A DNA stretch of 64,000 nucleotides from Laetmonice hystrix. Its lineage: Eukaryota. The notes below the pieces were generated by a model. The model saw nothing but the letters and a program-made list of their open reading frames with translations, was not told the origin of the DNA and searched no databases. The stretch covers positions 6,326,001 to 6,390,000 of the forward strand of contig OZ249436.1 in the NCBI GenBank assembly GCA_965235115.1. The letters are read 5' to 3'. Each line of letters begins with the position of its first letter. Position 1 is the stretch's first letter. The position numbers and the translations under genes were made by a program. Positions 15,010-55,200 of this stretch are shown here, piece by piece.

Positions 15010-18000
15010 GTTCCACAAACGATGAACAATGCTCAGGAGAATGCTACTCGAGGCAAACGGTCAAATGTATGATACGGTGTACTTGTATACGAGTCGCACA
15101 TGTATTAGGCATGTTTATGCTGGTTTGATATTTTCACACACTGGGGTTTAATTGGGTTGATTACGTATTTGTGTGCATTTGATTTCATTTATTTCCCTCA
15201 TTCTATTTATGTTTCCGATGTTTTGAATGCTGTAATGTTTGAATAAGATGTTTGTTATGCTGCTTTGTTCGAATGAGTTTGAAACGCCATGTAATATTGC
15301 ATTCCTTGAGCAAGGTATGTTGGTTTGCTTTCAAGTAGGCCTACTGCAGCAGATTGGGGCTGTGGATGTTGATGGAGTGGGTTGAGGTTGATTATTTCAT
15401 CGTTTTTATATACATGTTTTATTTGAAAGTTGATTGTGTCTCTGTTTGAAATATTGTTTAATGATTTTTGTCTTCTATGTTTGACGTTTCTTGCTTTGTA
15501 GTTTTCATGTTGTTGAAGTTATGTATAAGTTAGGTTCAGTTTAGTTAAGTTAGTTAAGTATAAAGGAGTGACTTCAAAAACTGATCATCGATAATACTTT
15601 GGCGAAACATCGAAAAATGAAATTCAAAGATGGTGACAGAGTAAAAAAAAAACACAAGAAAAAAAAACAACAAAAAAACGAGAAGACTCGTGCAGCAAAA
15701 TCTGAATGAGAGAGCAGGGTGTGAATATGACAGTTTAGACAAAGCACAACACGAATAACGACGTTTAAACAAGATATAAACCTATAAAGGCATCAGTAAT
15801 GCCACAACCTTATGCTGAATGTGGTTGGTATAATGCACAGCAGCCAGGTGCTGCAGAATCAATATCAAAACGGTTGAACAAAGACAAATTCATCAAGAAA
15901 GACAACATTAATACTAAACTGGTGAATATGGTACCCTATCGAATCATGGAGTTAGGTGTTGATTCGTAAAAAGCGGATATACATGCACACAAACTATGAA
16001 AAATGCTCAGGAGAATGATACTCCTGGCAAACGGTCATGTATGACACTTACATTTGAGTCGCCACTAGGTTGATATTTTCACACGCTGATGGGTGATTGT
16101 TTTGATGATTTTGGTGGGGCGATTGATTTCCCTGATTCTATTGATGTTTTCGATGTTTTGAATGTTCCACAAACGATGAACAATGCTCAGGAGAATGCTA
16201 CTCGAGGCAAACGGTCAAATGTATGATACGGTGTACTTGTATACGAGTCGCACATGTATTAGGCATGTTTATGCTGGTTTGATATTTTCACACACTGGGG
16301 TTTGATGGTTTGATTACGTATTTGTGTGCATTTGATTCATTTATTTCCCTCATTCTATTTATGTTTCCGATGTTTTGAATGCTGTAATGTTTGAATAAGA
16401 TGTTTGTTGTGGTTAATGTTTATGCTGCTTTGTTCGAATGAGTTTGAAACGCCATGTAATATTGCATTCCTTGAGCAAGGTATGTTGGTTTGCTTTCAAG
16501 TAGGCCTACTGCAGCAGATTGGGGCTGTGGATGTTGATGGAGTGGATTGAGGTTGATTATTTCATCGTTTTTATATACATGTTTTATTTGAAAGTTGATT
16601 GTGTCTCTGTTTGAAATATTGTCTAATGATTTTTGTCTTCTTTGTTTAACGTTTCTTGCTTTGTAGTTTTCATGTTGTTGAAGTTATGTATAAGTTAGGT
16701 TCAGTTTAGTTAAGTTAGTTAAGTATAAAGGAGTGACTTCAAAAACTGATCATCGATAATACTTTGGCGAAACATCGAAAATGAAATTCAAAGATGGTGA
16801 CAGAGTAAAAAAAAAACACAAGAAAAAAAACAACAAAAAAATGAGAAGACTCGTGCAGCAAAATCTTAATGAGAGAGCAGGGTGTGAATATGACAGTTCA
16901 GACAAAGCACAACACGAATAAAGACGTTTAAACAAGATATAAACCTATAAAGGCATCAGTAATGCCACAACCTTATGCTGAATGTGGTTGGTATAATGCA
17001 CAGCAGCCAGGTGCTGCAGAATCAATATCAAAACAGTTGAACAAAGACAAATTCATCAAGAAACACATTAATACTAAAGTGGTGAATATGGTACCCTATC
17101 GAATCATGGAGTGAGGTGTGGATTCGTAAAAAGCGGATATACATGCACACAAACTATGAAAAATGCTCAGGAGAATGATACTCCTGGCAAACGGTCATGT
17201 ATGACACTTACATTTGAGTCGCCACTAGGTTGATATTTTCACACGCTGATGGGTGATTGTTTTGATGATTTTGGTGGGGCGATTAATTTCCCTGATTCTA
17301 TTGATGTTTTCGATGTTTTGAATGTTCCACAAACGATGAACAATGCTCAGGAGAATGCTACTCGAGGCAAACGGTCAAATGTATGATACGGTGTACTTGT
17401 ATACGAGTCGCACATGTATTAGGCATGTTTATGCTGGTTTGATATTTTCACACACTGGGGTTTGAGTACGTATTTGTGTGCATTTGATTTCATTTATTTC
17501 CCTGATTCTATTTGTTTCCGATGCTTTGAATGCTGTAACGTTTTAATAAGATGTTTGTTGTGGTTAATGTTTATGCTGCTTATGTTCGAATGAGTTTGAA
17601 ACGCCATGTAATATTGCATTCCTTGAGCAAGGTATGTTGGTTTGCTTTCAAGTAGGCCTACTGCAGCAGATTGGGGCTGTGGATGTTGATGGAGTAGGTT
17701 GAGGTTGATTATTTCATTGTTTTTATATACATGTTTTATTTGAAAGTTGATTGTGTCTCTGTTTGAAATATTGTCTAATGATTTTTGTCTTCTATGTTTG
17801 ACGTTTCTTGCTTTGTAGTTTTCATGTTGAAGTTATGTATAAGTTAGGTTCAGTTTAGTTAAGTTAGTTAGGTATAAAGGAGTGACTTTAAAAACTGATC
17901 TTCGATAATACTTTGGTGAAACATGGAAAAGCGAAGGTGTTTAGTTCCCATCACATGGAGCCAATGTCACTGTCCATTTCGAAAATGAAATTCAAAGATA

Positions 18001-19695
18001 GTGACAGAGTAAAAAAAAACACGAGAAAAAAAACAAACGAGAAGACTCGTGCAGCAAAATCTGAATGAGAGAGCAGGGTGTGAATATGACAGTTCAGACA
18101 AAGCACAACACGAATAACGACGTTTAAACAAGATATAAACCTATAAAGGCATCAGTAATGCCACAACCTTATGCTGAATGTGGTTGGTATAATGCACAGC
18201 AGCCAGGTCCTGCAGAATCAATATCAAAACGGTTGAACAAAGACAAATTCATCAAGAAAGACAACATTAATACTAAACTGGTGAATATGGTACCCTATCG
18301 AATCATGGAGTTAGGTGTTGATTCGTAAAAAGCGGATATACATGCACACAAACTATGAAAAATGCTCAGGAGAATGATACTCCTGGCAAACGGTCATGTA
18401 TGACACTTACATTTGAGTCGCCACTAGGTTGATATTTTCACACGCTGATGGGTGATTGTTTTGATGATTTTGGTGGGGCGATTGATTTCCCTGATTCTAT
18501 TGATGTTTTCGATGTTTTGAATGTTCTACAAACGATGAACAATGCTCAGGAGAATGCTACTCGAGGCAAACGGTCAAATGTATGATACGGTGTACTTGTA
18601 TACGAGTCGCACATGTATTAGGCATGTTTATGCTGGTTTGATATTTTCACACACTGGGGTTTGATGGTTTGATTACGTATTTGTGTGCATTTGATTCATT
18701 TATTTCCCTCATTCTATTTATGTTTCCGATGTTTTGAATGCTGTAATGTTTGAATAAGATGTTTGTTGTGGTTAATGTTTATGCTGCTTTGTTCGAATGA
18801 GTTTGAAACGCCATGTAATATTGCATTCCTTGAGCAAGGTATGTTGGTTTGCTTTCAAGTAGGCCTACTGCAGCAGATTGGGGCTGTGGATGTTGATGGA
18901 GTGGGTTGAGGTTGATTATTTCATCGTTTTTATATACATGTTTTATTTGAAAGTTGATTGTGTCTCTGTTTGAAATATTGTCTAATGATTTTTGTCTTCT
19001 ATGTTTGACGTTTCTTGCTTTGTAATTTTCATGTTGTTGAAGTTATGTATAAGTTAGGTTCAGTTTAGTTAAGTTAGTTAAGTATAAAGGAGTGACTTCA
19101 AAAACTGATCATCGATAATACTTTGGCGAAACATCGAAAAATGAAATTCAAAGATGGTGACAGAGTAAAAAAAACACAAGAAAAAAAACAACAAAAAAAC
19201 GAGAAGACTCGTGCAGCAAAATCTGAATGAGAGAGCAGGGTGTGAATATATGACAGTTCAGACAAAGCACAACACGAATAACGACGTTTAAACAAGATAT
19301 AAACCTATAAAGGCATCAGTAATGCCACAACCTTATGCTGAATGTGGTTGGTATAATGCACAGCAGCCAGGTCCTGCAGAATCAATATCAAAACGGTTGA
19401 ACAAAGACAAATTCATCAAGAAAGACAACATTAATACTAAACTGGTGAATATGGTACCCTATCGAATCATGGAGTGAGGTGTGGATTCGTAAAAAGCGGA
19501 TATACATGCACACAAACTATGAAAAATGCTCAGGAGAATGATACTCCAGGCAAACGGTCATGTATGATACTTACATTTGAATCGCCACTAGGTTGATATT
19601 TTCACACGCTGATGGGTGACTGTTGGTGATTTTGGTGGGGCGATTGATTTTATTTATTTCCCTGATTCTATTGATGTTTCCGATGTTTTGAATGT
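15010..19695 (+). repeat. Four tandem copies of a ~1.15-1.20-kb unit
   Basis: The unit start GTTC(C/T)ACAAACGATGAACAATGCTCAGGAGAATGCTACTCGAGG occurs at 15010, 16164, 17324 and 18523. Units are highly similar with small indels; unit 3 has an extra ~40 bp near 17930-17975. Confidence 0.95.
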
Positions 19696-22293
19696 CTTAA
19701 TGTTTGAATGTCTTCTTGTTTGAATACAACGTTTGTGGGGTTTAATTTTTATGTTGCTTACCTTATACCTCACAGGGAACCTTTTCATTGTCAGCGGTAG
19801 TATTTTCATTATGTGGAAGGTTGATTTTGTCCATGATTGAAACACTATTTTACGTGGGTGGTCTTCGTTGTTTGGTCGTTTGTTTGATAATTTATGGTTT
19901 AATGGTTTAGTTTAAGCCGAGTAGAACTTAAGTTAACTAAGTTGGCTCAATTAATAAAGTGTCAATTGCTTGATGTCCTGGGGTTCTTCAGAGGTTATGA
20001 AATAGGCAAACGTTGATGGATGACACTGAGTTTATAGAAGTGACTTGAAAACTGATCCTTCAGTAAAACGTGATACATGGAAAAGCAATGGTGTTTATTT
20101 CCGTCGTATTCAGCCAATGTAGGAGTGTACATATGACAATGAATGATCATGGCAGTTGAGACAATGAAAAATGAAAACGGGTATAAAAAGCAAAACAGAA
20201 ATAATGACGTTCCACCAATACATAACCTAAAAAACGGCATCAGTGCTGCCTCAAACTTGCAATGAATGTGTTTGGTATTGATACCCAATGGCCAGGTTCT
20301 GCAGAACGAACAGTAACGAACGAACAGAAAATCGAGCAGACACGTGCAGAAAACAATCTGAAGGAGTGATCAGAGTGTGAATATGAATAATGACAAATTA
20401 AAACCGGCATAAAATGCACAACAGCAATAATGACGTTCAAACAAGATATTACTCTAAAAGCTGAATTTGTGCCAGGTGCTACAGAATGAATATCAAAACA
20501 CGAGAGAAAAAAGACCAAGGAAGTCCATAGAAAAACGCCAACACTAAACTGGCGTTGTCGGTGGATCGGATGGCTATGAGGGGAGGAGGAGGCCATAGTA
20601 ACAAAACTTGTTACTGAGTATTACATTATCTTATTAAATCACTGAAACTGCTGTTGAGGTTTGGCTGTGATTTGTGTTTCCAATGTTTTGCATTGATAAT
20701 TTAATACGTATTTACGAACGGATGTGAAGATAATATATTAAATTGATTAACTGAACAAGTAGTTTTAGTTGTAGTGTTGAAGACTGGGAGGTGCCACATG
20801 ACTACTTGCTGCAATATACGCCACATTCCGTCGGAGCAGCCATGCATGTCGTAGGTCATGAGGACTATCGCACACGAGGTGTGGACGGCGACCACTCTTT
20901 CAACCTAATCGTCAGATGGGAAACGCACAAGTCCGCTGTCTCGCAGACCTTCAGAAGAGAAACAGTTCAAGCCCACCGCCACCCCTTTTCCTTAAAATAT
21001 CATTTATTCGGACTTGTGCTGTCCATTGTCTGGATTTTACAGCTGCCTTTACGCTTTTCCAGGGTTTTACATGCATAAGTAGGATTTATCCCTGGTTTTT
21101 AGTGCGGAAGGTTGGCGCCTAACATTTGAGTCTGGGAAGAAATTACTTTAATAAAGAAATTAACAGGCTTTTTTACTGTTTGTTATTTGTACAGTATCAT
21201 CAAAACATAATAAAGGTTAGTTAAACGATGCCACCAAATTAAACAGGTTAGCAAGACGTAGCCGAGGGAAAGGCCGGGAGAAAAAAAAACATTGCAAAAA
21301 TGTCGCAACAACGCAAAAGAAAAGAATGTAAAGATTCAAACGTGGTCAAACGAAGGCCAATCGGTAAACCGGCAAGTTAATGGTAGTATGGAGACACTGC
21401 AGCAAAGGCTGCAGAATTTGAAAACAAATTGAAACAAATCTGTAAAATGGTCAGTCGATGTCACCAAAGTAAGACTACTGACGTGAAGTCATGGATCAAA
21501 TCCAGCTGGTGGCAGGGTAGTCGGTCGTCGGAACGTGTTCATTTCCTGATTACAATATTAAATCCGGTAGGCGGCAGATAAGCTCATATACCTCGTACTT
21601 ATTCCAGTAGTACGAAGAAGTCGGCAGTGAGCAGAAAAGATGCAAGGCTGCCTGGTTGTCTTGGAGTCGCGGCCAAGTTTTGCATCCTAAAAACGGTTTA
21701 AATGAACGACATCTACTGAGACAACAAGGCGGCAGACCCAGAACGAAAGAACATAATATCTGAATCGTCATTTAAATTATTTCATTTAGAAATCGAATTG
21801 CACCAATTTTAACCATATAATTTCTAGATTTCAATTCACGATTATAATACAAGGACTGTTCTAACGATGTAGACGCCGTGAAGATGGCCATCAAAGCCAA
21901 CATGGAGGAAAGGTACAATTACTCGTTACTTCAGATGTATTATATGCCTACGTTTTCCACGAAAATCTGTTTACACCTAAATGTACTTGTCTTTGAAAGA
22001 TCAATAAACCTATATGCCTAAAAACTGAATTCCGTCTTTTCCATGCAGGTTCTAGATCACATGGTTCAGGAAATATAGGCCTGGGTTAAATCACTCTTGT
22101 CCCCTACAATATTATCCCTATATTATTAATATAGGGATTATAAATTTAATAGGATACATGTAGAATTCGGGGAAGGCAGGAGGAACCAAGAGGCTCTTGG
22201 TATATAATCATGTGGGCGGCGACGATAAAAATGCCGCTAATAGCATACTGACAAAAATGGGGGGGGGGGCACGCTCACGATCACGCCCATTTG

Positions 22294-22519
22294 CTAAAAT
22301 GAACGCTTATATAGGATATCGCATGGGAACTTTGGTAAGGCGCTGGGGCGTATGGGTAACCAGTTAAAAATGAGCGTTAATATATATATCGCACGGGAAC
22401 TTAGCCTGGTCCCCTGCCCACCAGACGCATCCGCTATGTCTGGGGACCAGGCTAACGGGAACTTGGGTAAGGCGCTGAGGCCTATGGGTAATGAGGACAC
22501 GTAACGCTTGCCGAACTAG
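22294..22519 (+). mobile_element. Possible Helitron-like 3' terminus
   Basis: Direct repeats GGGAACTT(T/G)GGTAAGGCGCTG..GC.TATGGGTAA (about 22325 and 22457) are followed by an imperfect hairpin GGACACGTAACGCTTGCC and CTAG (22516-22519). The base after CTAG is G rather than the canonical T. Confidence 0.35.
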
Positions 22520-22992
22520 GCCTATTTTTTTAGAAGCCATGGCAGATTTCCACCTGACACCAGTCAAACTGGTGGTTAATATTTGGGTAATAATATATCC
22601 CCAAACAAACCCAGCATAGGTCTAAGTTTAAATACAGAAATATCACTATGCTTGTTACATAATATCTTATGCATACAAACACTAATTTGTGTCACCGGTG
22701 TAATAATCTACTAATGATTGAGGTGGCGCGCATGTGCATCCTTGGGCCGTAATTGTGCACGGCTCGAAGATTGGCAAAAGGACTCGAACGTGAGAAGGGG
22801 TGTGTGTGTGTGGGGGGGGGGGGTTACTCGATTTTTTTTATACGTTCAAAGTTATCCAAAAATAAAATCAGTTCTGTACCAAAACCAAGGAATATTCTAG
22901 AAAAATTAACCAAAACAATGAACAACTCATTTTTTTTACGTTTACTCAGCTTAACGTCGCTTTTTACGCGATTGTCTCTCAATCCTGGGTTT

Positions 22993-23197
22993 GTTAGGGG
23001 TCGTAGAGGACGGCGTAGGAGCTATGTTTGAATCGTTAGGGTTCGTAGAGGACGGCGTAGGAGCTATGTTTGAATCGTTAGGGGTCGTAGAGGACGGCGT
23101 AGGAGCTATGTTTGAATCGTTAGGGGTCGTAGAGGACGGCGTAGGAGCTATGTTTGAATCGTTAGGGGTCGTAGAGGACGGCGTAGGAGCTATGTTT
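22993..23197. repeat. 42-bp tandem repeat, about 4.9 copies, overlapping the stop codon of the minus-strand gene
   Basis: GTTAGGGGTCGTAGAGGACGGCGTAGGAGCTATGTTTGAATC at 22993, 23035, 23077, 23119 and 23161, with no spacers. Confidence 0.95.
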
Positions 23198-23548
23198 AAG
23201 ACACAGGAACTGGACGCCAGGTAAGGCGTCTCTATTGTTGTTTCCGTAGAGAAACCCGCCGACGGCCCTGGACAGGTCTGGTGCAGAGTCCCACACTGAC
23301 ACTTTACTTAGCATGCCTCTACTGTTCCAGATCTGGCCACCTTTGGTGCAGTTCATCACAAGGTCGCTTCGCACACAACTCACCCGTTCAAACAATCCAT
23401 CCGGCTTAGCGACTTTCTGTTTGTCGTAGAAGAAATCCCCGAGGGCTGCATAACCTAGGATCATTTTAAAAATACATAAAAAGATACGGTGGACGATAGG
23501 TTAAAATATATTCTCTGGAAACACCGGCTCAAGCCTTGCGTAAATCAT

Positions 23549-23596
<48 letters not shown>

Positions 23597-25138
23597 GACA
23601 GAAACAGACAGAGAGGCAGATAGAGAGAGACAGAGACAGACAGAAACCCAGAGACAGAGACAGAGGTTAACACATGTGATCTGGCGCCACATAATTTACT
23701 AGAAGCCGCCACTTAATCTCCTGGCAGACGCCACTTATTTCACGTGAGGTGATTGTTAAATGAAGTTGGAAATCTCCCCTTACCATTCGTACTGACAATA
23801 TATTCCACAGCTGTGACCCTTACCCTGGGGACACGCAGCCCGCCACAGAGATCCTTCAGCCATGGTCAATATGTCGTTTCGGCTATCCCAGATTAGGGCG
23901 AAGGCAGTCGGCGTCTTGAGCGCCGACGGGTTGACCGCCTTGAAGGCCATAAGGTCGGTCCCCAGGTTATCGTGGTTCCGCTGTCCTCGTTGTCCTAAAG
24001 TCTTCCAGTCGGGGGCGGGCCGGGCCGGCTCGTAGCATATAAAGTTGTCACTGAAGCCAGGATTTTGAAAAAGGTGTATGTGTGTGTGTGTGGGGGGGGG
24101 GGGGATTCAAGAAACCTATTGCCAAATGGGATGTCATACAGTCTGTCAACAGGTATACCGTATCTTTTTATCGCTTGTTTTTGATTGCATGTCTTTTGGA
24201 CGTCATTTGGACTTACCTGGCAGTACCGAATCTGTCCCACCAGGCCCTGACTCCATTTTTACCAGGCGGTGTGACAATGGCGACCAGCTCCGGTGTGGCA
24301 TGCTAAAAGATGACACCAAACGGCATCCGTTTTGACATAGCAACATCCAGAACTTGGTTCGACATGGACAAATATGACTTCGTCTACACAACAAAACATG
24401 GCCCAGCAGTGCCTTACGTGTCCCTTTCATAACGTACTCACAACAAAACATGGCCCAGCAGTGCCTTACGTGTCCCTTTCATAACGTACTCACAACAGAA
24501 CATGGCCCAGTCTTACGTGTCCCTTCATAACGTACTCACACCAGAACATGGCCCAGCAGTGCCTTACGCGTCCCTTTCATAACGTACTCACAACAGAACA
24601 TGGCCCAGCAGTGCCTTAATTACGTGTCCCTTTCATAACGTACTCGTCCTTTGTTGCACTCAGAGGGGAAATTACTCAATAGGAAAACAAGTACGCATTA
24701 AAGGTTTGAAACGTTTTAGATAATAAGAGTTAATATATTCATGATTGAACTCACGACACATGCCAAGGCGGTCAGCAAGCCAAAGGTTCCTATAAATGTT
24801 AAGTCCATTGCAAAACGTGTCGATTAATGCGAAGTTGTAGTTACTGTTCTAACAGGTATGCACGGTACTCTGCCAATAGCGACACGACTTAGTGGATTAT
24901 CTTAATATGTGTCGTGCACCAAACATTGTGGGAATATCTGCACGTGTTTGTTGTGATAACTGAAAAACGGAACAATGGGCCGAAGTTAACTTTGTCAATG
25001 TGACCATGGGTTAACTCACACACACCAGAGACTAATAGCCACAGTTCTGAAGACAACCCTGACCCCTGACACAATAGGAACCAGGCCGGAAGATATTATA
25101 ATTAAATAGAGACAGACTGTAAAGTCCAGTGCTACCAT
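23162..25138 (-). CDS. Small, probably secreted Vps62/DUF946-like repeat protein (~226 aa, spliced)
   Basis: Three phase-compatible GT-AG exons on the minus strand: 24302-24217 (HATPELVAIVTPPGKNGVRAWWDRFGTA), 24050-23824 (DNFICYEPARPAPDWKTLGQRG...ALKTPTAFALIWDSRNDILTMAEGSLWRAACPQ) and 23454-23162 (GYAALGDFF...RVSCVRSDLV...QIWNSRGMLSKVSVW...YDP*). The motifs LIWD..GSLWR..P.GYxALGD..CVRxDLV..IW..G..VSVW match the Vps62-like consensus as I know it. A tentative first exon 25138-25064 (MVALDFTVCLYLIIISSGLVPIVSG, signal-peptide-like, donor GTCAGG) is less certain. Confidence 0.75.
23528..23663. repeat. (GA)n/(GACA)n microsatellite inside an intron of the minus-strand gene
   Basis: Directly visible. 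Confidence 0.9.
24387..24645. repeat. ~52-bp minisatellite, 5 copies, intronic or upstream in the minus-strand gene
   Basis: CACAACA(A/G)AACATGGCCCAGCAGTGCCTTACGTGTCCCTTTCATAACGTACT repeats from 24387 and 24439 onward, with small indels. Confidence 0.95.
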
Positions 25139-26382
25139 TACCCCTGTTTTATTAGTTGAGAGGCCATATATAGCGCCCTTGTCCCCTGGTTCCAGTGCCT
25201 ATGTACAAAAACAAATAACACGCATGCATCAAAATAAACAGGATTTTCAAAAGGGGTTCCCCATGTCGCTATGAAATGTTTTATAATATAAAAGGGGGGT
25301 TCCGAAGTTTAGCTACTTCCGAGATGGCCATTAGGCCATGCTCCTCTAGGAAATTTAACAAAAAGATATCAAATAATGCAATCTCGGGACATCTTGTGTG
25401 GAAATATGAATGTTTCCTTTGGTTAAAATAATGCATTTTACACCCCCTTTTTACCAAAATGTCCACTGATCTTTATTATTGCAATCTGAGTTCGTCGTCA
25501 GTATTCCATATATCCCTTACGGCCAATCTGTAGGGAGTACTGTTGGTGTAGGTATTTCAGGCTGCTCAGCGGGGTAGTGTTGAGGAGCGGGGTACTAGTG
25601 TCACCTCAACCAAACCAGCACCTTCCTGGCACTGTACCCGAGGAATGTTGATCACACCGTAACGACCAACTGTCGCTGACTGGTTTATTATCACACTTGT
25701 TCTACATTGTGAACTAACGCAATCTTTTAATAGTCTGACTGGAGGTTGGAAAACGGAGCAAATCCGATTACTGACTGAACGGTTTGTGAAATGACCTGTA
25801 TGGCGGAACTGTCTTTAAGAAAACAGGACCATACAGGGGGAATGGTGGCTAAATTAAGTATTTATATTGGTTTGGATCGCCGTAGCTCATTAATGAGGAA
25901 GATATTAAAAAAGGATACTATTTCAGGAGTTGTACAACAGGTCTTACTACACTCCGGTTCATTCTAAGCTTTTAGTAGCCTAACTTAATCGTAAATTATA
26001 CCTTCTATCCCGTCCCAACATGTAACAAATTGCACCAGAAAGCCGAACTGAAACTCAACTATATAGAAATGAATTACTCTCAGTCGTCTCTTACATTTCT
26101 GCGCTCTCTCTGTCTCTGTCTCTGTCTGTCTCTATCTATCTCTGTCTCTGTCTCTGTCTCCCTCTGTCTCTCTCTGTCTCTCTCTCTGTCTCTCTCTATC
26201 TCTCTCTCTCTCTCTCTCTCTTACTATTGTTTATGTTTAGTGTTAAGTAGCTTTCTATGTGTAAAAGCTGTATGGGACTGAAGAAAATACTGAACTTGAT
26301 CTGGTCACATGGTAACGTAAATATTTACACGTTACTAAGTAATATGCAACAGGACTGCGTCTGCGCGAAATCCGATAATTGT

Positions 26383-26396
26383 GCTTATATATAAGC
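26383..26396 (+). promoter_or_regulatory. TATA box within the palindrome GCTTATATATAAGC, copy 1
   Basis: About 65 nt upstream of the ATG; identical in all four copies. Confidence 0.65.
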
Positions 26397-26455
26397 TGAC
26401 GGGAACTCATTACGACCAAAACGGCCTCCTCGTGTAGCACATCAACCAACTCGCT

Positions 26456-29400
26456 ATGAAGACGGCGCTACTCATTTCAGTCGTAGTACTTGGTGAGTTA
26501 CTCGATTATACATTGCTCTTTACACGTTTTCTGCGATCGGTACTATGATCTGCTGGCATATTCGCAAACTTTGCCACTTCTTGGGCTAGCAAGTCAAGCA
26601 CTCATTGATCATGAACTTAAAGGCAGTGTTGACTCTTATTTTAAGGCAGCATCAAGGAACGACCAACACGAATATCGTGTTGCGTTCAAGATAATGAGAG
26701 ATAGTGTAATTAGTGGTTGTCATCTCTTTCTCTTCCATATTTCAGCTGCTATAGGTGCTGCACTTTGCAGTACGACGACGGAGGATCCTATCACAAGACC
26801 TCCTAGAAATGAGACGTTTGGCAACGAGACCATGTTTAACTCCTCAATGTCCGGGAACGATACCAGGCCGTTCGGACGAGGACCCCCAAGGATTGGGGGA
26901 GGACCCCCAAGGATTGGAGGACTAAGCATCAGTAAGAGAGGCGTGGACATGAGGGCCCTCAAACAGATCGACGTGAGTTTTCAGCTTGAATTTTTCTGAG
27001 AGTAAAAAAGAATAATTATGTCAACTCTGAACGGACTGAAAAAAGGGAAAAATGAATTTCATTATTCACGCCTGCCCTTGTTATATCTTCGGAGATTTAC
27101 GTGGAATGAAGCCTTGCGACCACAGATGCGACCTTTGCCTTAAAGAAGACACAGTTTGAACACATTGCAAATGGTCTGAAACACCCTGTATACTAGCAAT
27201 GATAGCCCTACATCTCTCGTTTGATGTATTTCACAGCCAGCGACTTTGAGGGACTCTGTGAGAAGTATGTCAAGATCGGAGAAGGACGACTTATGTTTTG
27301 GTGTCATGAATGGAGGCGCAGACAAGAGAACAATGGACCTGTTAAAATCTCAAGGGGTCGACTGTGTCGGTGCTATGAGAAGAGACCCCTCGGTAAGTTT
27401 CATAGGATGTTACGTGCCTGCACAGTACTTTACCAAAGTGTAGGCCTACTAGTACAGTGCCCCTTCTGTTTACTAACAGAACGATGATTTACAACGTTGT
27501 CTGTATCTCTGCCACAGTTCAGGCCAAAGGGCGGCCAAGCCGTGCTGGCCTTCGACCAGATGAAGGCCGACAACCCTCCGTCCAGTTGGAACGATTCCGA
27601 CTGGGCCGTAGCCTTCAAACAGATGGGATCAGCTGTCAAGGCATCTGACATCCGCCAGATGGGACCTGACGTTATGAGGGCCCTGTAAGTGCTAATTTAC
27701 CTCCCAGACATATATATAACCTATGCAGAAATAATAAACACCATATAAAAATAAAAATGTTCACCAGGTTTACTGTAATTATCATGCCTATTCTGGATTC
27801 TTTACTTTAGAGTCTTGAGCGGGGATCTCCAGCAAGCCGATACCTTCAAACGTCCATCCGAGAGGCGGGCGCTCGAAACGCAACTGAGAGGTGCCTTTGG
27901 CGATCCTACAGCATGGAACAGCAGTACTTTGGCAGATATGGGTCCCCTTCTCGGTAAAATGGACACCAAGACCCTCAGATCTATCCCTAAAGCTCAGGTA
28001 ATTTTGGTTTTTATATCAGAAATCGTGTATCAGAAATCGTGTAATGAACGTGATACAATTAACGGTTTCTGTGCGAAGTTTCGCATAATTGTTGCCAAAG
28101 GCATCCAGCGATATCGAAGACGTCATTGACACATTGACATTGGTTGACACATGGGCATAAACCTGTTCGCTTAACTACATAGAAAAATGTTTATCGCACC
28201 CAGATGAGAGCCGCCGCATCCAGCCTGAGAGATCTCAAGTTTGATGATCCAGGCAAGAAGGCCGCCATGGGAAAACAGCTAATTGAAGGACTTGGAAAGA
28301 ACGCGGCAAATACATGGACCGCCGACGATGTCAAAAAGTAAGTGCTACAACGTACACTGCTGACATATTACGATCAGGATCACAGATTAAAGTCGCGTGT
28401 TTTGCTGCAAAGTGCTGCTCTTCTTAGCTTGACAAAGTTGGAAGTATTCATTGAGTCACATGTTACTATCCAATGAAAATTGTTATAATAACAACAAATT
28501 TAACCGTAACGGCTGCAGAAAGACTATCCCTTGCTCTCAACAATAGGCACTCCCCTTCCCATTAAAAGAAATCCTGGCTAGGCCTAGGGCCTGCTAGTTG
28601 TTCCCGATTGAACTGAAGCATTATTACCTGTGTCTGCAGTGCCGACCAGTTTATCCGGGGTAACCCAAGTGTCATCAGTCGGCTGAGCGACTCGTCCCTA
28701 ACCAGCGCCATGAGTGACCTTGGTGCCCGTGAGACAGACAAGAGAGGTGTAAGTATGGAGACTGACATCTTCAAAACAATGCCTGACCTTATGTCAGAGT
28801 GAAAGATTCATTTGAAATACTTGTTTCAATACCAGGTGTAGTAAGGTTACTATTCTTACTTGTTGACAGGCTGCTCAACTGGGCAAGCGGATCAAAGGCC
28901 TGCCCGGCTATTCGAACCCGGCACAGGTTGACTCCAGTAAGGTAGCAGAGATGGGCCAACTGATGCAAGGCATGGGTCGGGACTACCTCAGCCGACTGTC
29001 ATCCTCCGCCGTACAGGGCGCTATCAGTACCCTGGCGAACGTCTCCTTCCCACGAGGTGACGCCCGCGAGCTCATGGCAAAGATCAAGGGTGACGTGAGT
29101 ACAAAAATTGGCAGATCACTAGTTGGACAAGCTAACATCGATCCTGAACCCTACATTAATCGACCTCTGTTAAATATTCCGAACAGATATATAAGTTGAT
29201 GTTGCTTCCTTCACAGCCTGCAGCATACGACTCGTCTAAAATGAGGGAACTTGGCCACTTGGTGACCGGACTCGAACCTGAAGATCTAGACTCCGTACCA
29301 GCTTCAGCTTTGGTTGGCGCCATTGAGGATATTGCTGACAAGGACTTCGATGTCAGCCAGTGTCGTAGTATTGTCAGGAAGGTGGGTTTATATCCAACTT

Positions 29401-32400
29401 TGGGCTGTTAAATAAACCTCATACAGAGATAAACTTACTACGTAATTGAGGAGCATCTATTTCTACATTCCTACATAAATGATTAACAGAAATAATACTA
29501 AATGATAAAATGAACATATTATTCAAAGGTCAAACAAGCTGGTAGTGAGAACCTTGGTAGGATGGGAAAACTCATGAAGAAATGTATGACCCCTGATGAC
29601 CTTGACGCCGTGTCCATCGATGACTTGGGATTGAACTGCAGCTCCAGCACGGCTCCTTCCTTCACGCCAGACAAGGCCCAGGTAGAGTTTTACTTTCAGA
29701 CTCTGTCAATTTGCTATAAATGACCGAAACAGGAAATGTAGGCAGCGACGGATGAATGAATTTGTTAGGCTGGCAAACCGGGGGGGGGGGGGGTATACGC
29801 TTTATTTTATAACATCATCCTTATTGAATAGAGATACAAGCCTCCTTAGCCCCTCTGGATGTACAACTGCTCGGGCATGGCTGTCATATTCTTAACCCCG
29901 TTTTAAAACTCCGTATACCCTATATTAATCCTTACTCACATAACGTACAGGCCAAGAAACTGATGAAGAAACTCAAGGATATCTACGGCAATCCATCATC
30001 AAGCAACACCAATTACTCTTTAACCTGCCTGCAAAACTGGGGCAAGGTCGCCGCTCTCGGCATGGACGCCTCCGACTTTGAGGACCTTCCAGACAATGGT
30101 GACTTGGCATCTATCTTTGAGGCGCTCAGCGAATACGAGGACGAGATGGACGACACACAGGTACAAGTCCTTTTGTTAAACATTAACATTTCTTATAGGA
30201 TTTCTGTAAGGTTTTCCTGTCTTTGATTCTGCAACGTGAACCCCCTGCCACCCAGCTCGGCGTTCTTCATTCCACTATCTTCATAGAAGTGAAGGTAACA
30301 ATAATTTACCACCAAAAATTCCAGACTATGGCGTTGTCCACACGTGTCCGCGCTTACCTCGACATTGACAACAGCACTGCTGCCGCCGCCATCGACTCGT
30401 CCGTTGTCGAACAACTTGGTGTCTTCCTGAAACACTTCAAGTAAGCTTGATGACCCACCTATACACATAAACGAGGAAGTTTGTTTTCTGAAGAAAAGAA
30501 AAGTTGGATTAAGTGTTGATCTAGGCCTGCTGAATGGACTTCGAAATGGGTTTAATATGGAAGCGGTATACCTTCTCAGGTTATATGAAATGGAAGTCGT
30601 GACATCTGATCTCAATATTTTGTCTGTCTCATTACTTTACAGTACGAGTGACCTGGAGAGGTTCCCGTCAGCTGTTAGACCTGACGTTGGTCGTAAACTG
30701 GGAGAGGCCAACATGAACAGGCAGCCTAAGGCGGAGATTACTCGCCTCAAGAACTTTGCTTTGAAAAATATCGTAAGTGTCATTTTACTAGGAAACTTTA
30801 ATTGGCAACCTTATGTCTCGAGCTCTGTTTTTGGCATTTGTCAATGAAAAGTCAATCTACGGTTGCAGACATCTTTTTAGAAACATTGAATCCCATTTCC
30901 AATTATCCTTTTCCTCATTCAGCTTCGTGACGACACAAGCACCGTCACAGACCGTTCGTCTGCATCTGAACTTGACGATAATGATGTTCGTGACCTTGGA
31001 AACCTCTTCCGGGGCCTGGAAACCAGTGACATTAGCAAACTGAACGAATCGGCCATGGAGAGTAACATGGTGTCAATGAATGGCCAGATCCGGGACAGGC
31101 CTTCAATGGAGGCTGTATGGACACGAGTACAGGCCACTGATCCGTAAGTTGTTATAGAATCTCCATCCTGGAGGGTTTGACTTTACTCACAATAGATGCA
31201 CATTTTCTTTTTATTCTATGGAGGTATGTCCTTAAACATGAACAATAATGACACCTTCACTCCTTGGCACTCGGACACAACAAAACAACAAGATAATAAA
31301 TGGATAACTAAAACATGCGCTCACTTTTAAGAGCATGACTTTAATCATTGCTTGCTTCTATCTCTATGTCAGGACGTTCCTGAACAGCGCCGATAATGTA
31401 ATCACGAGTGCTGGTCTGGTAGGAGGAATGCCACAGGCCACTATCGACGCCACAGACAAGGTATTATAGCTGTGGTCTTCTACCTGTCAGTACAATACAG
31501 ATTATGGCAGTAATGATGACTTTCATAGTACCAAACTCGTCAACACTGGTCAGTTCTGTAACCATTACCGTCATTCCATTTACAGTCGGTTCTTGGCGAG
31601 GCACTCAGTGACGCTGCCGAAATGATGCAGCAACGTAAGGTGAACGATAGAGCACGTGACCAGGCAGGTTTTCGCGGTGAAATATCAGCGGCTGACAAGA
31701 CAAGCATGGGTGGGAGCAAATCGAGATTTGTCCTCAGGGCGTTTGAAGGATACCAGGCAGCTCAGACTACCAGCAGTAGGAGAAGGAGAAGGGCAACAAG
31801 TGAGTCAATGTTAATGGGTAACCTACTTCTATCATGATATCGTTTATCGTAAACCACCGTTAGTTCTACTTTTCTTCAAGAAATCTGGTCATGCAATATG
31901 AAGACTAGATTGCTAGGGTGGGATACTTTATCAGAGACGGTAAATCAGCGTTCTGAAACATTCGGACTCTATTGGCAAATGCATGTACGTGTACATGATT
32001 TCAAGTGACCTCTCGTTTGACCATGTGGTTCTTTACCCACAGCTGCCATCACTTGTTCGGACATTCAAGTGCTGGGTTCGAACGCTGTCCAACTGACCAC
32101 CTCTCAGCTGGACACGTTGACCTCGGCGGAGTTCACTGACTGTACCGAGACCCTGGGCGGAATCACAGACTGGAGCTCGGAACAACTCACATCACTCGCA
32201 ACAAAGGCTAAATCCGTAAGTTTCTATACTATGCCAGACTATGGTTAAGCGTTTAAAAGTCCGTAATAAGTCTGACCTCCTAATGCCCTAGTTTATATAA
32301 ACGAATTATATTTTAATATTTTTTTCTGGATGAACTAAAGAATTTGATTTTTTCCAGACATATGGGACACCATCGACGTGGACGTCGACAGAGATCAAGC

Positions 32401-34026
32401 TGTGTGGATCCGTCGTAGCTGGACTGTCTGTCTCTGAGATCGGAACCCTCAACTTAAACTCCTCCTCCGTCATGGCAGCCATAGGGGCCACCACGGCTTA
32501 CAGCTCAGCCCAGGTCCGTACTGATCGGCTGACACTTTGTTTGTTAACCATTGCTGGTTCATGTGTACCATTCGTACATTGCTTGTTGTTCAGTAATTAA
32601 TTCATTTTCTCCTGACTTGATTACAGTTGAAGACCGGGTTCGCTCGCTACCTGTCTGTGGCCAAGTCTGACACCGCCTCGTCAGTAACAGGGGACGAGCT
32701 CATGACTATGGGTAACTTCGCATGTGGTGCCGAGACCAGCCACATCAGTAGCTTCTCCACGTCCACTTACAGGTAGGTCTGGGGGACGGATCCCAACACG
32801 AAATGTCCTATTACAAATGTGAACTTAGCTCCTGGTCCAACAATCATGTACAACTGAATGACTGTACAGATAAGGTTCTGAGCCTGTAGTATAAGACTGA
32901 AAAAGACTGAGATCTACAATTAAAAGCAGAAGGATATAGAAGAGATATATAAAATGGAGAAGTGGCAAATCTAATTTGGCCTATATTATTTCCATTTATC
33001 ACAGCACTGCCGCAAGTAGTATCGGTGCCTTGACTACATGTGACAGTGGCCAGTTGTCGGGCTACGCCACGAAGGCCAAGGCCGTCTACGGGGCCACCTC
33101 TACCTGGGATTCCACTACCATCACCACAGTTGGAAGCGTCATTGGTACGTATAACAAGTCTGTCAAAGAAATATAAGATACTTATGAGACTTGTTCAAAG
33201 GCCTACATAGATCTAATCCTGTTCGAATCTACAACTCCCCCGACGATCTTACATTTTTATGGTGTGTTTTTCAGGAGGTCTCACCTCTTCTGAGTTGGCT
33301 GCCCTAACGTCTGCCCAGTTGGCGTCCGTATCAGCTACTTCCATCGCTCAGATCCCGCCAGCCACCTTCGCCGTAAGTTGACACATACCATTGTAATACC
33401 ATTATACCCTTATTGGTATGGTTATACGATGTCGATGTTGATAGTTATGTACACAAATGGTCACCGACCATTAAATGGTCACCGATGAGGATCGAACCAC
33501 CCCTAACCGGCTATACTCTTCCCTCCAGGGTCTGACGTCATCCCAGCTGGCTGGACTTTCAACGGCTCAGGCGAACTCTGTGACAGGCAACCAGCAGGCA
33601 GCCCTCAGTACGGTCCAGCTCAACAGTCTCTTCTCGGCAGGAGCCAGTCAGAAACCAGCCACGACAGGTCCCAACAGCGGGACGGGTGAGCATGCATTAT
33701 TACTTTACTCGATATATTTTAGTTTATACAGTTGTAAGTGGCAGTATTATAGTCATGGTATGTTATAGGTAAAGAAATATTCTGATATCAAGCCAAGTAT
33801 TGGTAAACAACAATACTCAGGAAGCCATAGTGCCAGAGAGTGTCTCACAACACAGTACTTTTTCATAAGGCCTCACGAGGCAGTAGGCCTACTGCAATGT
33901 TGAACTGAACGCGTGCCTGTAGGTCAGTGTATCAGATGTTCTCATGATTGCTTTGTTATTCTTCCAGCCACTGTACGATTCTCCGTCTTCATGGTTCTAC
34001 CCATCATCCTCCACAAGCTGCTGTAA
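26456..34026 (+). CDS. Otoancorin/mesothelin/stereocilin-family-like GPI-anchored glycoprotein, copy 1 (23 exons, 1155 aa)
   Basis: Exons 26456-26492, 26746-26972, 27237-27392, 27518-27684, 27811-27997, 28204-28337, 28640-28748, 28870-29094, 29217-29381, 29529-29681, 29951-30160, 30325-30440, 30643-30772, 30923-31143, 31373-31460, 31586-31799, 32043-32215, 32358-32513, 32627-32772, 33005-33144, 33275-33372, 33529-33685, 33968-34026. All introns are GT-AG with consistent phases, giving 3468 nt and no internal stop. The protein starts with signal peptide MKTALLISVVVLAAIGAALC. Repeats such as FGDPTAWNSSTLADMGPLL, YGTPSTWTSTEIKLCGSVVAGL and YGATSTWDSTTITTVGSVIGGL resemble the mesothelin YGPPSTWS motif. 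It ends NSGTATVRFSVFMVLPIILHKLL*. Confidence 0.85.
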
Positions 34027-53200: not shown

Positions 53201-55200
53201 CCTCCGTCATGGCAGCCATAGGGGCCACCACGGCTTACAGCTCAGCCCAGGTCCGTACTGATCGACTGACACTTTGTTTGTTAACCATTGCTGGTTCATG
53301 TGTACCATTCGTACATTGCTTGTTGTTCAGTAATTAATTCATTTTCTCCTGCCTTGATTACAGTTGAAGACCGGGTTCGCTCGCTACCTGTCTGTGGCCA
53401 AGTCTGACACCGCCTCGTCAGTAACAGGGGACGAGCTCATGACTATGGGTAACTTCGCATGTGGTGCCGAGACCAGCCACATCAGTAGCTTCTCCACGTC
53501 CACCTACAGGTAGGTCTGGGGGACGGATCCCAACACGAAATGTGAACTTAGGTCCTGGTCCAACTGAATGACTGTACAGATAAGGTTCTAAGCCTGTACT
53601 ATAAGACTGAAAAAGACGGAGATCTACAATTAAAAGCAGAAGGATATAGAAGAGATATATAAAATGGAGAAGTGGCAAATCTAATTTGGCCTACATTATT
53701 TCCATTTATCACAGCACTGCCGCAAGTAGTATCGGTGCCTTGACTACATGTGACAGTGGCCAGTTGTCGGGCTACGCCACGAAGGCCAAGGCCGTCTACG
53801 GGGCAACCTCCACCTGGGATTCCACTACCATCACCACAGTTGGAAGCGTCATTGGTACGTATAACAAGTCTGTCAAAGAAATATAAGATACTTATGAGAC
53901 TTGTTCAAAGGCCTACATAGATCTAATCCTGTTCGAATCTACAACTCCCCCGACGATCTTACATTATTACTCAAGTATGATGACATGATTCTTGAAACTC
54001 AAGTATGATGACATTCTTGAAACTCAGAACATTCAACATCTTGCCGTTAGACGTAATGAGATCTGTTTGAAATATTTTAACAAAATTAAGAACCCTGCAC
54101 ACAAACTTCATCATCTGTTGCCTCAACCTAGAAATGTACAATACTCCTTAAGAACCAGAAAAGAATACCCCCAAATACACGCCCGAACGAATAGATACAT
54201 GAACCCATTAATCCCATGGTGTTTACGCAACTGCCAGACATAATGTGTACCTTCTATTCTATTTTAAATCTAGTCTTGTCATGGTGCATCTTTTATTCTA
54301 GTATAGTTTTAATCTAGTCTTGTTATGGTTATTAATTTTTGTTTTATATGCAATTGTCTTATCTATTATATAATGTATAGTTAATCCAACCGTATAATGG
54401 TTGCCAATAAACATGATTCTTATCTTATCTACATTTTTATGGTGTGTTTTTCAGGAGGTCTCACCTCTTCTGAGTTGGCTGCCCTAACGTCTGCCCAGTT
54501 GGCGTCCGTATCAGCTACTTCCATCGCTCAGATCCCGCCAGCCACCTTCGCCGTAAGTTGACACATACCATTGTAATACCATTATACCCTTATTGGTATG
54601 GTTTACGATGTCGATGTTGATAGTTTTATGTACGCAACTATCCATATTAAATGGTCACCGATGAGGATTGAACCATCCCTAACCGGCTATACTCTTCCCT
54701 CCAGGGTCTGACGTCATCCCAGCTGGCTGGACTTTCAACGGCTCAGGCTAACTCTGTGACAGGCAACCAGCAGGCAGCCCTCAGTACGGTCCAGCTCAAC
54801 AGTCTCTTCTCGGCAGGAGCCAGTCAGAAACCAGCCACGACAGGTTCGAACAGCGGGACGGGTGAGCATTCATTATTACTTTACTCGATATATTTTAGTT
54901 TATACAGTTGTAAGTGGCAGTATTAGTCATGGTATGTTATAGGTAAAGAAATATTCTGATATCAAGCCAAGTATTGGTAAACAACAATACTCAGGAAGCC
55001 ATATTGCCAGAGAGTGTCTCACAACACAGTACTTTTTCATAAGGCCTCACGAGGCAGTAGGCCTACTGCAATGTTGAACTGAACGCGTGCCTGTAGGTCA
55101 GTGTATCAGATGTTCTCATGATTGCTTTGTTATTCTTCCAGCCACTGTACGATTCTCCATCTTCATGGTTCTACCCATCATCCTCCACAAGCTGCTGTAA
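47253..55200 (+). CDS. Otoancorin/mesothelin/stereocilin-family-like GPI-anchored glycoprotein, copy 3 (23 exons, apparently intact)
   Basis: ATG at 47253 and TAA at 55198-55200. Exons and splice sites are homologous to copy 1, and I saw only substitutions (e.g. ADTF>ADSF, DAVS>DAES, GFRG>GFSG, AEF>AEY, GPNS>GSNS). A LINE fragment lies in intron 20. Confidence 0.82.
53966..54429 (+). mobile_element. 5'-truncated non-LTR retrotransposon (CR1/L2-group-like): ORF2 C-terminus plus 3' UTR
   Basis: Absent from the same intron in copies 1 and 2. It encodes ...HKLHHLLP...YSLR...RTNRYMNPLIPW...* (stop at 54243), resembling the post-RT tail of CR1/L2-group ORF2. AATAAA and a (TTATC)-like tail lie at the 3' end, and TACATT flanks both sides (53960-53965, 54430-54435). 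Confidence 0.8.

Follow-up and report, generated by a model that had tools for sequence, protein, structure and literature searches.

An intact-looking gene for a probably secreted beta-tripod protein beside a mesothelin/stereocilin-like gene array in Laetmonice hystrix

The stretch analysed here, called the window throughout, comprises 64,000 nucleotides (nt) of Laetmonice hystrix DNA (GCA_965235115.1, contig OZ249436.1, positions 6,326,001 to 6,390,000). It contains a small minus-strand gene, here named the tripod gene, which lies head-to-head with a tandem array of mesothelin/stereocilin-like genes. The tripod gene has an open, spliceable frame of the Vps62 family, falls into a cysteine-bearing subfamily and has lost the family's recognition signature. 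It looks intact and would encode a small, probably secreted protein that consists of one beta-tripod. We favor, with a probability of roughly 0.55, a secreted, disulfide-stabilised, non-catalytic binding protein at an outer surface.

Gene model and start codon

The tripod gene was modelled as three exons, A, B and C (23162 to 24302), preceded by one exon 1, for which two candidates were compared. Features of the gene are as follows.

24755 to 24808, minus strand: preferred, putative exon 1; ATG, 18 codons, hydrophobic and signal-peptide-like, phase-0 donor GTC/GTGAGT
25064 to 25138, minus strand: exon 1 of the sequence-only reading; 25 codons, hydrophobic, donor GGG/GTCAGG; possible, less favored
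24900 to 24907, minus strand: TATA-like TATTAA, 99 nt upstream of ATG 24808; candidate promoter
24217 to 24302, minus strand: exon A, 86 nt; signal-peptide end, mature N-terminus and first half of repeat 1
23824 to 24050, minus strand: exon B, 227 nt; remainder of repeat 1 and start of repeat 2; Pfam Vps62 positions 56 to 131
23162 to 23454, minus strand: exon C, 293 nt with the stop codon TAA; remainder of repeat 2, repeat 3 and three invariant cysteines
22993 to 23197, minus strand: 42-nt tandem repeat, 4.9 copies at 98%, built from the last codons and stop
24387 to 24645, no strand: 52-nt tandem repeat, five copies, within intron 1 under either exon 1 model

All borders between exons A, B and C are AG/GT, the phases (2 and 1) match, and the donors of exons A and B are CAG/GTAAGT and AGG/GTAAGG. 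Introns 2 and 3 measure 166 and 369 nt. Joining the three exons in a script yielded 201 amino acids (aa) with zero stops, and both junctions were gap-free in an alignment to four full-length homologues. The sequence-only reading had proposed three phase-matched minus-strand exons with junctions 24217/24050 and 23824/23454 and a product of about 226 aa; the DNA bore out these coordinates exactly, and that model indeed gives 226 aa without an internal stop. The predicted protein is about 22 kDa with an isoelectric point of 8.6, carries Trp and Cys residues and has one N-glycosylation sequon.

The position of exon 1 is less firmly set. Exon A begins in phase 0, and 27 candidate exons running from an ATG to a phase-0 GT lie in 26400-24330, of which the two listed above are plausible, being hydrophobic with a usable donor. 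Three of the 27 had better donor scores and were rejected, since they fall inside the 52-nt repeat and lack hydrophobic character. With a generic donor matrix the two plausible exons received much the same score (0.2 versus −0.1). As a local standard we used the 22 donors of the array copy 1 gene, which were chosen by eye with the open frame checked, so that the set leans toward the consensus. Among its 15 donors without AG at the exon end, 14 have GTRAG, and C occurs at +3 in only 1 of the 22; GTC/GTGAGT agrees with this pattern, and GGG/GTCAGG does not. No ATG lies between the TATA-like element at 24900-24907 and ATG 24808, and the nearest TATA-like word to ATG 25138 is only 34 nt off. The 20-residue leader of the 24808 model is also closer to the leaders of two relatives (P0019 and P0009, described below). 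Because of the donor, the TATA-like element and the leader, a start at 24808 appears more likely than one at 25138, at about 70:30. The product would then have 219 aa instead of 226, and the start proposed in the sequence-only reading, together with its exon at 25138-25064, was probably misplaced by 330 nt.

Contigs from three DNA runs of one sample span the introns of the gene. Their depth in X1 and X2 was 53 to 68 over the tripod gene and 120 to 257 over the array, about 2-5 times higher, which is in line with one tripod copy and several array copies, depth not being a copy number. A six-frame scan of the window with the homologue profile found exons B and C and no second tripod copy. At the 3′ end, the surplus copies of the 42-nt repeat all lie behind the stop codon, so that 22993-23197 forms an exon-end minisatellite in which the last codons and the stop of the gene are repeated head-to-tail.

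Family, subfamily and fold

Exons B and C each matched a single Pfam family, PF06101 Vps62, with E 7.6e-4 (18.4 bits, profile 56-131) and E 6.1e-4 (18.7 bits, profile 142-225), respectively; exon A gave no Pfam match. The two matches are collinear and fall on adjacent parts of the profile. The family named in the sequence-only reading was thus the only one matched, while each exon scored singly stayed below the Pfam cut-off of 22.1 bits. Against a profile built from 28 homologues, which covers core residues 15-194, the joined 201-aa core reached 110.1 bits, and the best of 2,000 shuffles reached 6.2. The W-led heads of the three repeats fall into the same alignment columns as in the homologues, which upholds the three W-containing Vps62-like repeats described earlier. 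Repeats 2 and 3 were alike by pairwise BLAST (E 5.8e-4); the other two repeat pairs were not detectable in this way, and BLAST of exon B against exon C gave no alignment.

Relatives were sought with exon C in a filter-free search among 1.84 billion representatives, which returned 16 matches. Three of these (P0010, P0012 and P0015) were dropped as repetitive and apparently unrelated, leaving three near full-length proteins (P0005, P0009 and P0016) and ten fragments of 92-150 aa (P0001-P0004, P0006-P0008, P0011, P0013 and P0014). The fragments look like exon pieces with the same Cys pattern and intron position, and the best is 53% identical to the tripod gene protein. P0005, P0009 and P0016/P0019 consist of a hydrophobic N-terminus and one Vps62 domain only, are 32-36% identical to the tripod gene protein (P0005 33% over 189 residues) and score 46-66 bits with Pfam Vps62. 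P0009 and P0019 lie on contigs of only 1,206 and 1,066 nt, which suggests that these are transcripts, and four of the fragments derive from much longer contigs (0.14-5.1 Mb). All six fragments that reach the start of exon C lose homology at that exact site, with residues like those of a phase-1 acceptor; judged from these protein letters, the intron before exon C would be common to the fragments and the tripod gene. A word-indexed search with exon C among proteins of 169-2,000 aa, a weak search, gave none among 99 candidates. The ESM Atlas gave top scores of 0.83 and 0.85 to Vps62 clusters, which serve as leads only. One of seven metagenome loci from 199 stretches (L007) was dropped as a bacterial-looking chance match. 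No name or function was attached to the relatives among 20 proteins looked up.

In a tree of 32 full domains, from which the ten fragments and the near-duplicate P0016 were left out, the tripod gene protein, P0005, P0009 and P0019 are set apart by a branch supported at 99/96. These relatives and the fragments share length, architecture, Cys pattern and (in the fragments) intron position with the tripod gene protein at 30-53% identity. Pfam, the profile, the full-length relatives and the tree together support the earlier description of a stand-alone, probably secreted three-repeat Vps62-family protein. In four of eight longer or related proteins scanned (P0028, P0046, P0047 and P0061), the domain is fused to ETX/MTX2, aerolysin or Toxin_10-like parts; these fused relatives lie outside the clade of the tripod gene protein. 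P0046 and P0061, on JGI/Logan contigs of about 2.1-2.4 kb, combine a signal-peptide-type N-terminus, fibronectin type II, two Vps62 domains and an aerolysin/ETX-like domain, and they cluster with the stand-alone tripods P0039 and P0043 (100/99) as a second, separate eukaryote-looking tripod lineage.

The subfamily is marked by its cysteines. The pattern C-x8-C...C occurs in the tripod gene protein and 13 of 47 proteins and is absent from all 28 more distant ones (P0020-P0047). An 11-row alignment of exon C has three invariant Cys, its rows having been found with exon C and being therefore biased toward Cys conservation; the Trp and Pro invariants are also kept. The conserved Cys presumably form disulfides. 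In contrast to most of the family, the tripod gene protein has no strict D-x-G-S/T-G-x3-D signature in its 201-aa core, all three repeats having lost it. At least two signatures occur in 25 of 29 homologues and none in three (P0005, P0009 and P0022); P0016/P0019 keep two. The protein is thus ranked as a variant, a beta-tripod by its proxy fold that departs from the family signature. A T>C difference at window position 24046 (plus strand) appeared in contigs of all three runs, where it accounts for roughly half the depth in X1 and X3. It replaces Asn by Asp at core residue 31, where the family signature in repeat 1 would have its final Asp, and is probably a natural allele.

The fold was approached through P0005. 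Its AlphaFold2 model has an N-terminal helix (residues 4-24) and an all-beta domain, with a predicted local distance difference test score (pLDDT) of 89.4. Among 48,161 chains only two reached Z 2 or more, namely 6FBM (22.3) and pleurotolysin B (13.8), the latter with 157 residues aligned at about 15% identity; Foldseek of the model against 6FBM gave E 3.5e-13 and a template modelling (TM) score of 0.72. In sequence searches, P0019 matched the C-terminal domain of GNIP1Aa (6FBM) with E 2.1e-21, a profile of exon C and its fragments matched 6FBM with E 7.3e-10, and 6FBM was the only PDB match of exon B at E up to 10 (E 0.091); exon C alone gave no match among PDB sequences. A match of P0019 to collagen IV NC1 (E 2.6e-4) found no backing in the fold searches and was set aside. 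By proxy of P0005, the tripod gene protein is assigned the beta-tripod fold.

Pfam "Vps62 domains" are beta-tripods, their name stemming from a spurious alignment error (PMC7613979). In the tripod gene, "Vps62" means beta-tripod and not vacuolar sorting. The D-x-G-S/T-G-x3-D recognition sequence and a role in target recognition have been described (PMC8624791), as has receptor recognition by a family of about 6,000 InterPro members, some 5,000 of them from plants or fungi (PMC10683392). GNIP1Aa is a MACPF protein of Chromobacterium piscinae (PDB 6FBM; PMC8624791, PMC7613979, PMC10683392), and two secreted fungal proteins similar to 6FBM have been reported (PMC12099005). In pleurotolysin, the PlyB trefoil sits on the PlyA dimer (PMC4318580). 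Docking or targeting is the task of the domain in the two cases solved so far (PMC4318580, PMC8624791, PMC10683392). The nearness of the C-terminal trefoil of pleurotolysin B (4OEJ/9DO6) to the beta-tripod, at Z 13.8, is not mentioned in the accessible parts of the cited texts.

The tripod gene protein shares with the C-terminal domain of GNIP1Aa the fold (by proxy), sequence similarity and three W-led repeats. It differs in having no MACPF part, its own putative signal peptide, introns and extra conserved Cys, and in lacking D-x-G-S/T-G-x3-D in every repeat. The trefoil of pleurotolysin B (4OEJ, 9DO6) matches the P0005 model in fold, whereas it is fused to MACPF and has a PlyA dimer as its seat; a comparable partner of the tripod gene protein is not known. 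Plant and fungal Vps62/DUF946 proteins (PF06101, IPR009291), including plant VPS13M, belong to the same Pfam family and have the same repeat type. The tripods of VPS13M, however, are cytosolic accessories of a lipid bridge, whereas the tripod gene encodes a stand-alone, signal-peptide-type animal protein. Neither Chorein-N nor the repeating beta-groove lipid bridge of VPS13M was found, the 219-226 aa with their hydrophobic N-terminus holding no Pfam family besides Vps62.

The neighboring array and the role of the tripod protein

The region between the tripod gene and the array, and the first array copy, contain the following features.

25306 to 25572, no strand: high-copy repeat bin, summed depth 22,000-64,000 versus 32-235 in the two adjoining bins
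25900 to 26455, plus strand: part of the unit upstream of array copy 1, with a TATA box found in all four copies
26456 to 34026, plus strand: array copy 1, about 23 exons, signal peptide and a C-terminus like a glycosylphosphatidylinositol (GPI) signal; some modelled acceptors are unsure

At least four copies of the GPI-type mesothelin/stereocilin-like gene, 95-98% alike, occupy 25900-64000 (ATG at 26456, 36862, 47253 and 58018). Copy 1 gave weak Pfam matches to Mesothelin (E 0.005) and Stereocilin (E 1e-4), both under the cut-offs. Self-BLAST outlined an amplified unit of about 10.4 kb whose left edge lies near 25900, and the tripod gene accordingly stands outside it, as had been stated. Copy 3 alone carries an insertion of about 460 nt (53969-54430), in which the frame 53989-54243 resembles, by eye, the end of an open reading frame of a retroelement without long terminal repeats (non-LTR).

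ATG 25138 is 1,318 nt from ATG 26456 and points the opposite way, in agreement with the 1.3 kb given in the sequence-only reading; from ATG 24808 the distance is 1,648 nt. The divergent start codons, 1.3-1.65 kb apart under the two models, have separate TATA-like elements, with the high-copy repeat between them. The TATA regions of the array copies are 91/95 to 100/100 identical in the last 200 aligned columns, and because all four copies carry this same region, the array units bring their promoter with them and leave the tripod gene behind. Of the four upstream regions, that of copy 1 has diverged most, which fits the edge of an array, and for this reason the adjacency of tripod gene and array is probably older than the amplification.

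To the left of the tripod gene, 20500-22900 holds a very high-copy repeat right behind its 3′ end (summed depth up to about 20,000), with a weak CxC3/KDZ-transposase match at 21387-21578 (E 0.008). Farther out, 15010-19700 consists of about four tandem units of 1.16-1.2 kb that are 93-96% alike, show a G-rich skew and have no Pfam match. Rfam gave no matches on 1-27000.

In the reading that we favor, the protein would be secreted with cleavage of a 20-residue signal peptide and would serve for recognition, as a soluble, non-catalytic module that may bind a protein or glycoconjugate through three pseudo-symmetric loop regions. Binding would take place at an outer surface, on mucus, epithelium or a microbe, in defence or surface coating. 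Because the loops have diverged, the ligand would be unlike that of microbial tripods. The head-to-head arrangement would reflect an old neighborhood of two secretory-pathway genes, of which the array was amplified without the tripod gene. Several points weigh against this reading. The signature is lost in 3/3 repeats and kept at least twice in 25/29 homologues, so the binding behavior of beta-tripods need not transfer to this protein, and the accessible literature names no ligand for any stand-alone tripod. The fold was predicted on P0005, while the tripod gene protein itself sits on a long branch (1.74 in the 32-row tree). The exon joining was modelled from DNA, AATAAA is absent within 1.6 kb of the stop, and an animal origin of the relatives is deduced from intron-like breaks and signal peptides.

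The sequence-only reading had suggested that the tripod gene shares regulatory DNA with the surface glycoprotein and forms a secreted-plus-anchored pair with it. Such a protein would bind the mesothelin/stereocilin-like GPI protein, and the closely spaced divergent starts, the secretory look of both products and the docking of this fold on a partner protein in pleurotolysin (PMC4318580) are consistent with it. The adjacency stands, whereas the TATA region in every array copy and the very high-copy repeat between the starts lean against an obligatory shared promoter, and copying of the unit at least four times without the tripod gene has broken a 1:1 dosage; distal enhancers may still be shared. 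We consider the pair unlikely; beyond adjacency the pairing finds no support, and the arrangement may be mere neighborhood. Somewhat more doubtful is a detached aiming subunit of a two-part pore-former, with a MACPF or aerolysin-type partner coded at another genomic site. In both structural matches the domain is an accessory of a MACPF pore-former, and half of the eight scanned relatives carry toxin-like fusions; known systems, however, have the tripod fused to the pore-former, and those fused relatives fall outside the clade. The 73 stop-free stretches of at least 62 aa in 1-23000 included none that reached a Pfam cut-off or matched a pore-forming family, a scan that misses short exons. The earlier guess of a toxin-accessory-like role had the fold right (6FBM, pleurotolysin B), while the gene itself holds no pore-forming domain, Pfam giving Vps62 only up to the frame end at TAA 23162.

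A cross-linking instead of a recognising role, as a structural or matrix component of secretions such as mucus, tube, cuticle or egg coat, would fit a small, basic, Trp- and Cys-bearing protein of secreted type with one sequon and lost signature loops. It is improbable in view of the single copy, the compact binding-type fold and a chain free of low-complexity or repeat-expanded parts. Least probable is that the copy is silent or decaying, as in a young pseudogene, or that its product has no signal peptide. The long branch, the lost signature, the missing canonical poly(A) hexamer near the stop and the ambiguous exon 1 of a gene known from DNA alone would suit it. Against this, 201 codons stay open over two introns with good splice sites, the Cys, Trp and Pro invariants are retained, the full-length relatives P0005 and P0009 also go without the signature, and the tandem repeats are confined to introns or lie behind the stop.

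Novelty and meaning

The subfamily of the tripod gene protein is apparently undescribed. By title and the opening of abstracts, no publication on an animal beta-tripod was found in a search that left subscription journals mostly outside, and none brought mesothelin, stereocilin, otoancorin and an invertebrate together. Animal members may already be present in the sequence list of Zaitseva et al. (2019). In the accessible literature the beta-tripod has been examined only as an attachment of larger proteins, with no ligand named. A bolder view, to which we give little credence, is that free beta-tripods with stabilising disulfides and fast-changing loops form an undescribed family in marine invertebrates, serving as soluble adaptors that dock on the GPI protein of the array, or recruit a pore-former, and are co-regulated with it from a shared intergenic region. 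If true, the host would be employing a fold that is familiar from microbial pore-formers as their aiming module, and the pairing would supply the first partner for invertebrate mesothelin/stereocilin-like proteins; without the pairing, the tripod gene is one more uncharacterised secreted protein.

A small stand-alone secreted animal tripod would be a handy reagent for finding what the beta-tripod binds. "Vps62" labels in invertebrate genomes are best read as extracellular binding modules and not as vacuolar sorting proteins.

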